A stretch of 64,000 nt of DNA from an uncultured Candidatus Saccharibacteria bacterium (GTDB lineage Bacteria > Patescibacteriota > Saccharimonadia > Saccharimonadales > Saccharimonadaceae). The stretch is taken from positions 143,473 through 207,472 of the forward strand of contig CAZMZB010000001.1 in assembly GCA_964570845.1 (NCBI GenBank), read 5' to 3'. Below, piece by piece: positions 3,965-21,078 of the stretch. Below the pieces are notes generated by a model that searched no databases, was not told the DNA's origin, and saw only the letters and a list, made by a program, of their open reading frames with translations. Each line of letters starts with the position of its first letter. The stretch's first letter is position 1. A program made the position numbers and the translations under genes.

Positions 3965-4900
3965 TTATTGGATTCTCACGGGAGTCGCTTTCATTGAAAT
4001 TGGCACTTGTTTTATTCGCCATACATCATCTGGGGTGTAAGAGCAAAGATAGTAGGTACCAGCTGCTACTACAGCATTATGCGCCTCGCCAAATAAAGTT
4101 CTTTGTATATACATATAGCTACTACCCGCAGGAATACCTGTTAAGCTATCGATTTGAAAATAGACTTGTTGAGTTCCAGAGCTATTACACATCGCCAATA
4201 CTTCAGTAGACTGACTGGCAGACCCGCTAAATCCACGCCTTACTTGCTCTATACGCACAATGCCGTTAAGAATATATTCTCCTGTTCTTGGAATAACCAT
4301 GCCAGTCGTGTGATTATGCATAATACTCGGCTCCATCACTCCACCACCAGTACCTGTTACCGCTAGCGGACTCCCACCCAAAAACTCCCATTTGTAGGCT
4401 GAGGGGGAAGAAGAGTTGTAGCGCAGGTGCCAGATAGTGCGATTGGCACTATTGGCAACATAATACACCTCCATCCCATCAGTAGGACTGGAGGGCAAGG
4501 CGGTAACCATTGAGGCGGTGGAGGCAAGTTCAACAATGACGGTTCCTTTAGCCACATATTGTTTACCATTAGCCAGAGTGACGGTGCCGGTTACTACAGC
4601 CGAGGGTGCCTGGGAACCGGAGCTACTGGGAGGAGCTACCGTGAAGGTGGAGCTGTAGGTATCGTTTTGTTCTACATACTCAGTACCGGAACTAATGCTG
4701 CCAGTACAGGTGGTTTTGGGTGTTAAGTTACTGGTCCAGTAGATAGTGCCGTTCTTTTTTAGGCAGGCGGTGGCATAGGCAATGCCTGCTTCAACGACCT
4801 GATCGGCAACCCGGTTGTAGGTTTGTCCCTGCAGCGACTGGAAGATAGAGGTACTTGCCACCAGTGTGGAGGTGCCTATGATCATGAGGATGGTGCCCAC
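3965..4900 (-). CDS. PilX-N-like pilus-associated surface protein (5' end interrupted at a G8 tract)
   Basis: The N-terminal hydrophobic helix plus STSIFQSLQGQTYNRVADQVVEAGIAYA resembles the PilX N-terminal domain. The rest is a Ser/Thr/Gly-rich beta-type domain. The track start is a GTG inside the helix. The frame is open upstream to 5050 without a start codon. ATGs at 5034 and 5013 lie in another frame (see finding). Confidence 0.6.
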   Translation of the reverse strand: MGTILMIIGTSTLVASTSIFQSLQGQTYNRVADQVVEAGIAYATACLKKNGTIYWTSNLTPKTTCTGSISSGTEYVEQNDTYSSTFTVAPPSSSGSQAPSAVVTGTVTLANGKQYVAKGTVIVELASTASMVTALPSSPTDGMEVYYVANSANRTIWHLRYNSSSPSAYKWEFLGGSPLAVTGTGGGVMEPSIMHNHTTGMVIPRTGEYILNGIVRIEQVRRGFSGSASQSTEVLAMCNSSGTQQVYFQIDSLTGIPAGSSYMYIQRTLFGEAHNAVVAAGTYYLCSYTPDDVWRIKQVPISMKATPVRIQ

Positions 4901-4962
4901 CAGGATGAGGGTGGGAAGGGCGAAGGCGGAAGAGGTGGGAGTTAGGCTTCTTTTAGTACGTA

Positions 4963-4970
4963 CCCCCCCC
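4963..4970. repeat. C8 (G8 on the coding strand) homopolymer tract
   Basis: Read directly: tacccccccc at 4961-4970, followed by gcgggtgggggg (G6 at 4977-4982). Confidence 0.95.
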
Positions 4971-5065
4971 GCGGGTGGGGGGTGTGAAGAGAGGAAAGCT
5001 GCTTGTGTTTCATAGTTGGGTTTATTATTAGCATGAGGAGGAGGTGGGAGTCAAGGGGTGGATGT

Positions 5066-18942: not shown

Positions 18943-19437
18943 ATGATACTACGTAAATATTCTGGCTTTACTATTATAGAACTTGTCATCGTCATTACCA
19001 TCATGGCAATTTTAACCAGTGTGGTGGTCATAAGTTTAAGAACCAGCCAAGAAAATGCAAAAACTAAGGAGCGACAAGACGATGTTGATGCTATCGCACG
19101 AGCTTTTGAAACAACGTATCACGAAATAAACCCGGATGGAGAACAGCCGTCCTATCCTCAATTAAACAGTTACCCTTATATGGGTGCACTTACTATGATG
19201 GAATCAGGTTCTAAAAAGTCACCAACAGATAGCGCGTCAAATAGTCTAGTAAACGCTACTAACGCTAGTACATCCCCTCCTAGCCCTACTCCCTCAGCAA
19301 GCTATGATAAATATGTCTATCAACCACTAACTGCAACGGGGAGTTTATGTCAAGTTGGCTCTGGAGTATGTGTCAGGTTTAATTTATATTACTATAACGG
19401 TTCAACCTATAGCGTAAAAGAAAGCTTAAACCGATGA
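18943..19437 (+). CDS. Type IV pilin-like protein (minor pilin)
   Basis: Prepilin N-terminus MILRKYSG/FTIIELVIVITIMAILT (G-1, F+1, E+5). Confidence 0.85.
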   Translation: MILRKYSGFTIIELVIVITIMAILTSVVVISLRTSQENAKTKERQDDVDAIARAFETTYHEINPDGEQPSYPQLNSYPYMGALTMMESGSKKSPTDSASNSLVNATNASTSPPSPTPSASYDKYVYQPLTATGSLCQVGSGVCVRFNLYYYNGSTYSVKESLNR

Positions 19438-19958
19438 CAAAAAGATCAATATCACTCTCAGCTGGCTTTAGTGCCATCGAGCTACTCGTCACTCTCTTTG
19501 TCGCCTCTGCTCTTGTGCTTGCTTTTTACCAGCTCTTTGCAGTAATAGACGAGGGGAATGTTCATGCCAAATATACTGCTATCGCCAGCGATTTAGCGTC
19601 TTCCAACTTAAGTAAATATCCAAAGGCGAATAGTTCACCTGCCGGCTCTATCGGATCTGGTACAGATAATAATAACTGCTCCGGCAGCACTAGCCCATGC
19701 AGGGTAACTTGTGATGCTACCGGTACTTCTGGCAACAACGTAAATAACCTATCTATACGCCCCACAGCACCTGGTTCAAGGATATTCTATAGCTCCGGAG
19801 ATCAAGTCAATGGTCTACCCGGAACCGTAAACGAAGAGGTGCGTGCCTGGTGGCCAAAAGGATGCAGTGAAAAATTAATAAAGATAGAATCCACCGTTAA
19901 ATATGGCTCAAATCCGCAAAGAACAATAGCACAGGCAACGTATGTTGGGTATGAGTAA
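19434..19958 (+). CDS. Type IV pilin-like protein (minor pilin)
   Basis: N-terminus ...SLSAG/FSAIELLVTLFVASALV. The start overlaps the previous stop (ATGA). Confidence 0.8.
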   Translation: MTKRSISLSAGFSAIELLVTLFVASALVLAFYQLFAVIDEGNVHAKYTAIASDLASSNLSKYPKANSSPAGSIGSGTDNNNCSGSTSPCRVTCDATGTSGNNVNNLSIRPTAPGSRIFYSSGDQVNGLPGTVNEEVRAWWPKGCSEKLIKIESTVKYGSNPQRTIAQATYVGYE

Positions 19959-20991
19959 AAAAAGACGACACACTGGTTTTACGCTTGTTGAACTAATGGT
20001 AATCACTCCCATCGTTATGTTAGCGGTAATAGGAACGATGGCGTTACTCGTCAACCTGGTCGCTGAAAACGCCATTACGAATGCGGAAAACTCCATTTCT
20101 GCTGAAGCACAAAATGCACTGAGTGAAGTTCAAAACTCTTTATCAAGCGCAGAGATGTTTTTAGTAACTAACGGACTATCCGACAGTGGAAAATCGGGTA
20201 ACTATGGAAGCGCCAGTGATACCCCCAACTCAAGTCAACCCTTCAGAGGTATGCAAATTATTGGCAAAACATACGACCAAGTTGTAGAAACTAGCGGTAA
20301 AGTAGTACCGGCTTATAAAAACAGTCCTGCCGACTGTAGTACTGCTGCCAGAGTTTCAAATGGCGTACAAAACACTAATACTATCTACTTCGCCAAGCAA
20401 GTCGGCTCAACAGCAAGGGCAGAATTAAAAAGACGTGTGTTAACCACTGAGCCAAGAAATATTTGCGGTACAAGTATTTTCCTCAGAAGCTGTGAAGCTG
20501 GGTATAGTTCTCCGTGCGATAACGATGATACTCTAGCCAGGGATGTCGTAAGCTTTAATATCACCTATTACAACGCCAGCGGCACATCAATCTCTGGTGC
20601 AGCAGCAAACACTGCTGTTGCTGCTAAGGTTGAGTTAATGCTCAAAAAATCTGTAGGTGGAAAAGATATTAGTTACAAGGGGTCTGTCCGATTTAACCTT
20701 TTGAATACACTACCCCCCCCTAGTAGCCCCCCCTGCCCTGGTACCTTTACTGATCAGTCGATTACAGGCAGTACGTCTGGAGGTACAGTGTGGGGAACGG
20801 ATATCTACACAGATGATAGTAACCGTCCAATGGCAGCAGTTCATGCCGGAGTGATCTCCGCAGGACAAACAGCAACTGTTCGGGTGTGCAACTTACCAGG
20901 ACAAAGTAGTTATACGGGCTCTACAAGAAACGGAGTCACCACCAACAGCTATTCATCATGGGGGGGTAGTATCTCATTTACGTTGCCATAG
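19942..20991 (+). CDS. Minor pilin with C-terminal LCCL domain
   Basis: N-terminus KRRHTG/FTLVELMVITPIVML. The C-terminal 90 aa match the LCCL consensus (VWGTDIYTDDSNRPMAAVHAGVISAGQTATV...YTGSTRNGVTTNSYSSWGGSISF). A Pro-rich linker is encoded by C8 and C7 tracts. Confidence 0.85.
   Translation: MLGMSKKRRHTGFTLVELMVITPIVMLAVIGTMALLVNLVAENAITNAENSISAEAQNALSEVQNSLSSAEMFLVTNGLSDSGKSGNYGSASDTPNSSQPFRGMQIIGKTYDQVVETSGKVVPAYKNSPADCSTAARVSNGVQNTNTIYFAKQVGSTARAELKRRVLTTEPRNICGTSIFLRSCEAGYSSPCDNDDTLARDVVSFNITYYNASGTSISGAAANTAVAAKVELMLKKSVGGKDISYKGSVRFNLLNTLPPPSSPPCPGTFTDQSITGSTSGGTVWGTDIYTDDSNRPMAAVHAGVISAGQTATVRVCNLPGQSSYTGSTRNGVTTNSYSSWGGSISFTLP
20713..20733. repeat. C8 - TAGTAG - C7 homopolymer cassette inside the LCCL-pilin gene
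   Basis: Read directly: C8 at 20713-20720, tagtag at 20721-20726, C7 at 20727-20733. In frame it encodes PPPSSPP. Confidence 0.95.
20960..20966. repeat. G7 homopolymer tract near the 3' end of the LCCL-pilin gene
   Basis: Read directly (catgggggggtag); encodes WGG. Confidence 0.95.
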
Positions 20992-21078
20992 GAGGAGCTT
21001 ATAAAAAGCTTGCGCTTTTAAAAAAAGTGAGCTATGATTGCAACATACATCAATAATAAATAGGGGGCATACACTAAA

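Follow-up and report, generated by a model that had tools for sequence, protein, structure and literature searches.

The 64,000-nucleotide (nt) stretch of DNA considered here (the window, C1:143473-207472) belongs to the 774-kb genome of an uncultured Candidatus Saccharibacteria bacterium (G000), represented by an assembly of 69 contigs, with N gaps, that is 97% complete. It includes a gene for a minor pilin of 349 amino acids (aa), in which an uninterrupted run of eight cytosines (C8) is positioned at the joint between the pilin proper and a C-terminal LCCL domain. We suggest, tentatively, that this run is a slipped-strand contingency site for the display of the LCCL domain, and we place the probability of this reading at about 0.42, which ranks it first among the explanations that we have weighed. 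Its close rival is a reading in which the runs are incidental, reflecting the codons of a linker rich in proline, serine, and glycine that was inherited with the LCCL cassette and is tolerated in an accessory gene, where the runs would slip rarely and the frameshifts, being deleterious, would be lost; this too is a serious candidate, also held at somewhat short of even odds.

The protein in question begins with ...KRRHTG/FTLVELMV, a Gly-ended prepilin leader followed by a hydrophobic stretch with Glu5. The Pfam N_methyl profile scores 15.4 bits with this protein, versus a cut-off of 21.2, and is thus sub-threshold, so the call of a pilin leader rests on the motif and on the structural model. 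The LCCL domain (PF03815) is recognized at residues 280-342 with E = 1.6e-13 and 51.1 bits, versus a gathering cut-off of 22.6, the match spanning profile positions 33-94 of 96. An AlphaFold2 model, based on an alignment of 23 sequences and having a mean predicted local distance difference test score (pLDDT) of 81.7, shows a helix at residues 15-67, a beta domain extending up to residue 252, and a confident domain at residues 269-347, corresponding to LCCL, with the pLDDT values dropping below 50 at residues 257-262, between the two confident domains. In the model, the C runs fall in the coding sequence of a flexible linker, which connects the two parts of a bimodular pilin, a complete pilin fold and an independently folded LCCL domain. 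The predicted protein thus presents the parts that define modular type IV pilins, a leader with a helix and a pilin domain with an extra domain; its incorporation into a pilus and the display of the module are putative.

The original prediction, made from the letters of the window, had assigned to this open reading frame (ORF) a C8 tract, a TAGTAG hexamer, a C7 tract and a G7 tract, and all four are confirmed by their coordinates on the sequence (Table 1), the linker codons being CTA CCC CCC CCT AGT AGC CCC CCC TGC CCT GGT. It had also proposed that a +1 slip in C8 would bring TAG into frame, producing a pilin devoid of the LCCL domain, and that a -1 slip could be compensated at the second tract, and frame variants generated in silico behave in both of these ways. 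With C9, TAG TAG follows immediately, and the product is 260 aa long, ending in LPPP. With C7 in the first tract, the product is 303 aa long, including a 43-residue out-of-frame tail, and when this is combined with C8 in the second tract, the frame is restored. With G8 at position 20960, a stop codon follows directly after WGG. In a slipping population, gain of one C in C8 would place the double TAG in frame and leave a pilin without LCCL, of nearly the same extent as the gene of a sister species described below, loss of one C would leave a pilin with a junk tail of 43 aa, and the C7 and the G7 runs would provide further routes to domain loss, one combination regaining the frame. Cells would then vary in the display of LCCL on a pilus subunit, the state represented in all of the assemblies examined being LCCL-on.

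Table 1. Coordinates of the pilin genes, their modules, and the homopolymeric tracts (window positions unless a contig is given).
Feature	Position	Strand	Basis or remark
349-aa bimodular minor pilin gene	19942..20991	+	ORF list, Pfam, AlphaFold2: prepilin leader, pilin fold, linker, C-terminal LCCL
Prepilin leader MLGMSKKRRHTG/FTLVE	N-terminus of 349-aa pilin	+	Motif
Pilin core, residues 1-256	19942..20709	+	Orthologous to complete 252-aa sister-species gene
Linker LPPPSSPPCPG, residues 257-267	20710..20742	+	Sequence; residues 257-262 with pLDDT <50
C8 run, CCC CCC CC of Pro258-260	20713..20720	+	Sequence; in-silico frame variants
TAGTAG from CCT AGT AGC	20721..20726	+	Double stop in the frame reached by +1 slip in C8
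C7 run, AGC CCC CCC	20727..20733	+	Can break the frame alone or compensate -1 in C8; kept in paralogous cassette
Linker and LCCL cassette, ~0.3 kb	20708..21005	+	Absent from syntenic sister-species gene; homology resumes in 3' untranslated region
LCCL domain module	20743..20988	+	Pfam residues 280-342; AlphaFold2 269-347; 85% protein identity to P0029 C-terminus
G7 run, TGG GGG GGT	20960..20966	+	TAG follows in +1 frame; slip would remove or replace last LCCL strand
G8 in 5' leader of PilX-like gene	4963..4970	-	ATG frame and pilin frame differ by one base
PilX-like gene with leader mini-ORF (ATG at 5012, 23 codons, stop); body in -1 frame without own start codon	3965..5012	-	Sequence
Leader module copies	Window 4898-5053 (-); C3:15738-15900; C1:354313-354500; C1:1-123; C3:81928-82050		Sequence
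Two pilin-like genes upstream, 164 aa and 174 aa, same cluster	18943..19958	+	ORF list, Pfam
Downstream pilin gene, 149 aa	21079..21528	+	ORF list, Pfam

The position of the joint gains meaning from a comparison with the sister species (G001). Its match to the 349-aa pilin covers query residues 5-256 at 63% identity, within a 256-aa open frame; the syntenic gene itself encodes 252 aa and ends with ...VRFDLLNK before its stop codon, at the point where the 349-aa pilin continues as ...VRFNLLNT-LPPP, and the 3' untranslated region of the G001 gene matches the G000 sequence beyond the LCCL stop codon. As the G001 gene ends at the joint and the homology then resumes in the 3' untranslated region, the cassette is present in G000 and absent in G001, and, judging from the alignment, the linker and the LCCL domain are a portable cassette of approximately 0.3 kb, fused exactly at a former pilin stop codon. 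As this syntenic orthologue ends at the joint, the core-only pilin must be a natural, viable form.

A second copy of the cassette (C1:54958-55228) is found in another pilin of the same genome, P0029 (206 aa, C1:54962-55582, minus strand). Protein identity between the two copies is 85%, and DNA identity about 81%; the homology extends from TAC(C/T)CCCCC to the stop codon, and the copies share a 32-nt identical stretch (window 20767-20800 versus C1:55150-55185). These observations lend themselves to a further explanation, in which the C-rich stretch is a recombination joint, a boundary at which linker and LCCL are grafted or exchanged between pilin genes, resulting in domain shuffling and not in frame switching. 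Such a role is suggested by the homology starting at the C-rich stretch and ending at the stop codon, by the sister-species gene stopping exactly there, by the 32-nt identity kept between the copies, and by the differing positions of LCCL in other pilins of Saccharibacteria, of which P0003 has two copies and P0114 an internal one. However, at about 81% DNA identity exchange between the copies is not recent, no recombinase gene, inverted repeat, or target duplication is present at the joint in the sequence read, and neither the G7 run near the 3' end nor the genome-wide bias toward pilins described below is accounted for. We consider this explanation improbable, while noting that a recombination-joint role is compatible with either the switch or the by-product reading.

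The slipped-strand reading is supported by the distribution of long G/C runs in the genome. The original prediction had noted, from a by-eye scan, that in the window G/C runs of at least seven bases are confined to two pilus-related genes, in a genome of mid-40s % G+C. The count does find four such runs in the window, these alone, and the computed G+C content is 43.7%. A genome-wide census, set beforehand as a possible refutation should such runs prove common and randomly placed, reveals that they are neither. The genome contains 27 G/C runs of at least seven, with a length spectrum (length:number) of 5:332, 6:49, 7:15, 8:11, and 9:1 that has an excess at eight. Pilin territory, defined as 19 pilin-like ORFs with 150 nt upstream of each, amounts to 17.4 kb, or 2.25% of the genome, and holds 10 of the 27 runs (binomial P = 2e-10), this number reaching 12-13 if one also counts the leader modules at two contig ends and the RCC1-encoding half of a PilX2-like gene (both described below). 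The controls do not follow this pattern: G/C runs of exactly five in pilin territory are at expectation (8 observed versus 7.5 expected), those of exactly six number 3 versus 1.1 expected, only 1 of the 46 A/T runs of at least eight falls there, and the G+C content of this territory, 43.6%, is the same as that of the genome. Long G/C runs are thus rare and strongly concentrated in pilin genes.

Could the amino acid sequences be responsible? When codons are redrawn from the genome codon usage (synonymous resampling), the 349-aa pilin gene acquires at least two runs with P = 0.005 and at least three, as are actually found within 250 bp of this one gene, with P = 5e-5. Pilin ORFs taken together have 6 runs versus 0.83 expected (P = 0.001), i.e., seven times the expectation, whereas non-pilin ORFs are slightly below theirs, with 12 runs versus 15.1±2.2. 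CCC is the rarest of the Pro codons (13.3%), and CCC-CCC is used in only 7 of the 359 Pro-Pro pairs of long ORFs, 3 of the 7 being in the two LCCL pilins. Codon choice does not explain the three runs in the 349-aa pilin gene, and the by-product reading has the same difficulty with the bias as a whole, which is specific to runs of at least seven, not being seen with runs of five, with A/T runs, or with G+C content. It also has no answer to the runs in pilin leaders, where codon needs give no explanation, or to the run found close upstream of a pilin gene, though the promoter reading of the latter is sub-threshold. An origin of the CCC codons from a GC-rich foreign source was also considered, and the case for it is not strong, G+C at third codon positions being 43% in the cassette and 37% in the pilin core.

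The genetic background is permissive. The MutS_V and the MutL domains are absent from the 97%-complete G000, and none of 31 relatives, some of them with closed genomes, has MutS. Slippage at C8 is credible because mismatch repair is missing and because the few long G/C runs cluster in pilin genes, where they occupy coding sequence, 5' leaders, and a site that may be close to a promoter, and the lack of MutS order-wide should make such loci cheap to evolve in Saccharibacteria. Moreover, one pilin run does vary. The organism is present in public Logan assemblies of at least 10 sequencing runs (SRR16797976-SRR16798011), whose contigs report the majority sequence only. Among four assemblies, a run in the 5' leader of a classical pilin (C1:354403-354410) reads G8 in two (G000, SRR16798009) and G7 in the other two (SRR16797978, SRR16797981), and this is the sole difference over approximately 1.06 kb around the gene, providing direct evidence that, in this organism, length changes in a G run of such size outpace substitutions. 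Neither of the two lengths is in register with the ATG frame (both are "off"), and no "on" length has been seen; all eight contigs covering this pilin carry the short gene call expected of an off-frame run, the run itself being read in three of them (G8, G7, and G7).

A number of observations weigh against the slipped-strand reading and, most of them, in favor of the by-product reading. The original prediction named length heterogeneity of the target tract, in deep read data and across related strains, as the check, and between assemblies no such heterogeneity is found: in each of five Logan runs, including SRR16798011 and SRR16797979, the same in-frame product of 285 aa extends to the contig end, identical to that in G000, with C8/C7 in the three contigs in which the tracts were read, so the target tract is invariant in six assemblies. 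No record of a 260-aa, C9-type product was found, and length variants of the target tract had no match in a pattern scan of metagenome contigs, a collection from which near-identical records may be excluded. Five of the six pilin-associated runs that can be compared between assemblies did not vary: besides the target tract, the G7 at 20960 is likewise G7 in SRR16798011, the PilX-like leader run is likewise G8 in SRR16797978, a G8 run upstream of a 173-aa pilin gene is G8 in three other assemblies, and the C7 of that pilin gives the same product in nine contigs. Runs of 7-8 bases are at the low end of the lengths known to slip often, as in the Campylobacter and the Neisseria loci. In the paralogous cassette of P0029, C8 is replaced by C5 and GGG, the G7 is absent, and only the C7 is conserved, by common descent, in a linker in which three of five Pro codons are CCC. 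Of the other pilin-LCCL fusions in Saccharibacteria, P0091 has a Gly/Ala linker without a homopolymer, and the linkers of P0003 and P0114 are likewise run-free at the protein level, the only conserved element across such linkers being the Cys that precedes the domain. As C8 is lost in the paralogous cassette and another fusion linker is homopolymer-free, the runs are not built into pilin-LCCL fusions. Finally, the Pro-rich protein sequence of the linker on its own gives a probability of 0.17 for at least one run, Pro codons being C-rich anyway, and the total for all ORFs genome-wide, 18 runs versus 16.2 expected, matches the synonymous expectation.

The idea of slipped-strand control of LCCL display thus retains its anatomy, its frame effects, the absence of MutS and MutL, the enrichment of runs in pilins, and the variability of another pilin run, while the constancy of the target tract in six assemblies is at odds with it. 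In terms of what characterizes contingency loci elsewhere, we find a repeat within an ORF, an effect on the frame, a permissive setting, and non-random placing in surface genes, and we do not find, at the consensus level, length polymorphism at the target tract. It is plausible that the target run slips often enough to be useful and that cells make use of the switch. The 349-aa pilin is a singleton cluster, with no other strain identified in protein searches, and the 32-nt repeat shared with the P0029 cassette breaks all Logan contigs (k = 31) inside the target gene, leaving the full gene in no public short-read assembly beyond G000. The contig breaks, at window 20769-20796, were taken for heterogeneity near the tract, an idea that was dropped, as they are due to this identity.

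The invariance also has a bearing on whether the run lengths are real. Homopolymers are error-prone, and the assembly is fragmented, with 69 contigs and N gaps, so the true sequence could in principle differ, with the run lengths representing a sequencing or assembly artefact. However, the five independent Logan assemblies agree on the in-frame product, the G7 is reproduced, and the gene is in frame. As all six ORF-internal runs of at least eight located outside leaders are also in frame, systematic miscalling of run lengths is unlikely, and we regard an artefact as the least probable of all the explanations considered, and barely credible.

The fourth run of the window introduces a different arrangement. 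It had been noted that the 10-mer TACCCCCCCC recurs at 4961-4970 in a PilX-like gene, and the recurrence is real; its location, however, is not in the coding body of this gene but in the 5' leader, where it is a minus-strand G8 that breaks the frame. In this leader module, an ATG opens about 15 codons ending with (H/Y)-P-R-G-G, in which the G8 is located, a stop codon follows seven codons on, and the pilin body is in the -1 frame, with no start of its own. Five copies are present in the genome, in two PilX-like genes, in the classical pilin at C1:354403, and at two contig ends, all with G8 and none in frame; a run of G9 or G6 would join the two frames. The same genome also encodes paralogues whose leaders are short and ordinary. 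The leader motif does not occur in any of 150 other genomes of the family, that of the sister species among them, and pattern scans of metagenome contigs and genome contigs returned no match, in collections from which near-identical records may be excluded. Likewise, protein searches identify no close homologue of the PilX-like gene outside its species.

These leaders, more than the target gene, raise the question of programmed recoding, either ribosomal frameshifting or RNA-polymerase slippage, as G GGG GGG is formally a -1 slippery heptamer. Recoding would make sense of five leader copies that all have precisely eight Gs, in which the ATG and the pilin frames are offset by one base and no other start codon is available, and of the fact that no assembly has an in-frame leader length. 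However, the leader run of the pilin at C1:354403 is G7 in two assemblies, which would need a different shift, so its length is not fixed; RNA structure, whether local or downstream, is not significant (z about -0.1), linker and leader RNA folds being no better than those of shuffled sequences; and the 349-aa pilin gene is in frame and needs no recoding. Of the hallmarks of a programmed -1 ribosomal frameshift, the G8 leaders thus have the heptamer, while the length varies and the folds equal those of shuffles, and we consider recoding very improbable.

Returning to slippage, the positions of the runs invite a broader version of the contingency reading, in which G/C runs at three kinds of site, a short distance before a pilin gene, within the 5' leader module that several genes share, and at a domain joint, would form a layered system, slippage varying both which pilins are made and which of them carry LCCL. 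We find this version less likely than not. If true, it would produce two functional isoforms, core-only and core with LCCL, rather than an on/off pair, and it would represent phase switching of a single domain in a type IV pilin, among the first contingency systems in the Candidate Phyla Radiation (CPR).

Contingency loci based on homopolymeric G/C runs are well documented in Campylobacter jejuni (PMC3025981), and such loci of Neisseria and Haemophilus are known through Moxon, Bayliss and Hood (2006), as cited in PMC11032452. The features shared with these systems are G/C runs in or close upstream of the frames for surface structures, a small genome without MutS and MutL, one-base changes setting the frame, and a concentration in one surface class; the differences are that the runs here are 7-8 bases long versus typically 8-13, that the target run has been constant so far, and that the host is an episymbiotic Saccharibacterium. 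In Neisseria, a poly-G run in the signal-peptide coding region of pilC reportedly switches a pilus-associated adhesin, in work credited to Jonsson et al. in 1991, and of the known systems it most resembles the G8 leader modules (the one at window 4963 and its four sister copies). The target run differs from that of pilC in being at an internal domain joint, where a slip would remove the C-terminal domain only, leaving the pilin core. The futA, futB, and futC genes of Helicobacter pylori are said, in work credited to Wang et al. in 1999, to possess mid-gene poly-C runs resulting in either full-length or C-terminally truncated proteins. The mid-gene poly-C and the stops nearby in alternative frames are common to both cases, but the fut products are enzymes of the cytoplasm that lose activity on truncation, while the shortened product here would correspond to a pilin that occurs naturally and is presumably functional.

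Modular type IV pilins are likewise known, examples being PilB (with a vWA module) and PilC (with a lectin module) of Streptococcus sanguinis (PMC8179133; PMC9934059) and PilX1 and PilX2 of TM7x (PMC11623550). Like these, the 349-aa protein has a pilin core with a grafted C-terminal domain of a binding type, making it an adhesin candidate; unlike these, it has LCCL as the grafted domain, and no homopolymer at the joint has been reported for them. Our literature search found no paper linking Saccharibacteria or Patescibacteria with homopolymer phase variation, and none linking LCCL with pilins. Both the mechanism class, a contingency locus, and modular pilins are therefore known, and the position at a domain joint would be a new twist if switching were demonstrated.

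The potential significance lies in the life style of these organisms. Saccharibacteria live attached to host bacteria, and type IV pili with domain-bearing minor pilins are experimentally supported devices of attachment and host recognition in TM7x (PMC11623550; PMC9894109). If pilin genes carry slippage-prone runs, a clonal population would sample different pilus compositions and tip domains, which would matter for host range, for how epibionts compete, and for evasion of phages or immunity. Most known contingency loci are from host-adapted pathogens, and their range would then extend to the ultrasmall bacteria of the CPR.

Some of the neighboring genes and of the other runs deserve mention. 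The 349-aa pilin gene is part of a cluster of four pilin-like genes located downstream of murB. Elsewhere in the genome, 76 nt separate a G8 run at C1:365967-365974 from the 173-aa pilin gene downstream of it, in a locus flanked by pilC-like (T2SSF) and pilD-like (A24 peptidase) genes, the 173-aa pilin itself also carrying a C7. A sigma-70-like promoter around this G8 (TTGTAA-17-TACACT, recognized by eye) was rejected, as it has 8 of 12 matches, below the threshold of the promoter scan. The PilX2-like gene (C1:307000-309400, minus strand) encodes a PilX-like N-terminus followed by RCC1-type repeats, with a C7 at C1:308084, and it resembles both PilX2 of TM7x and a 599-aa gene of G001. A split in this gene at C1:308450 was taken for a frameshift and then rejected, as it is a scaffold gap of Ns. 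The three G8 runs of G001 are found not in pilins but in a C-terminal membrane anchor, and those at C13:9975-9982 and at positions 17-24 of contig C8 (C8:17-24) encode LAGGGVV of a repeat protein at contig ends.

The two PilX-like genes (C1:147935-148530 versus C3:15740-16335) are 99.5% identical over their 5' 596 nt, comprising the leader and the first ~165 codons, after which they diverge completely, so that their N-terminal halves look like products of recent gene conversion or duplication. Two of the leader modules (C1:1-123 and C3:81928-82050) are cases of contigs ending in the same 55-nt leader segment with different upstream sequences, and these ends probably mark a junction in the assembly graph, at a repeated pilin gene of which the body was not assembled. 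Another run, at C1:219193-219200, has C8 followed by GT and G6 (CCCCCCCCGTGGGGGG); it is located in a 332-aa ORF without a Pfam match and encodes DPPRGGS, which recalls the HPRGG motif of the leaders. Among the relatives, 26 of 61 have no window with runs of G8 or longer, and G005, G008, G009, G012, G016, G019, G023, and G052 are among the genomes with dozens to more than 100 of these, including some very long runs beside C runs (G008:C2:63465-63594), so that the homopolymer load, ranging from 0 to more than 100 per genome, is strongly lineage-specific.

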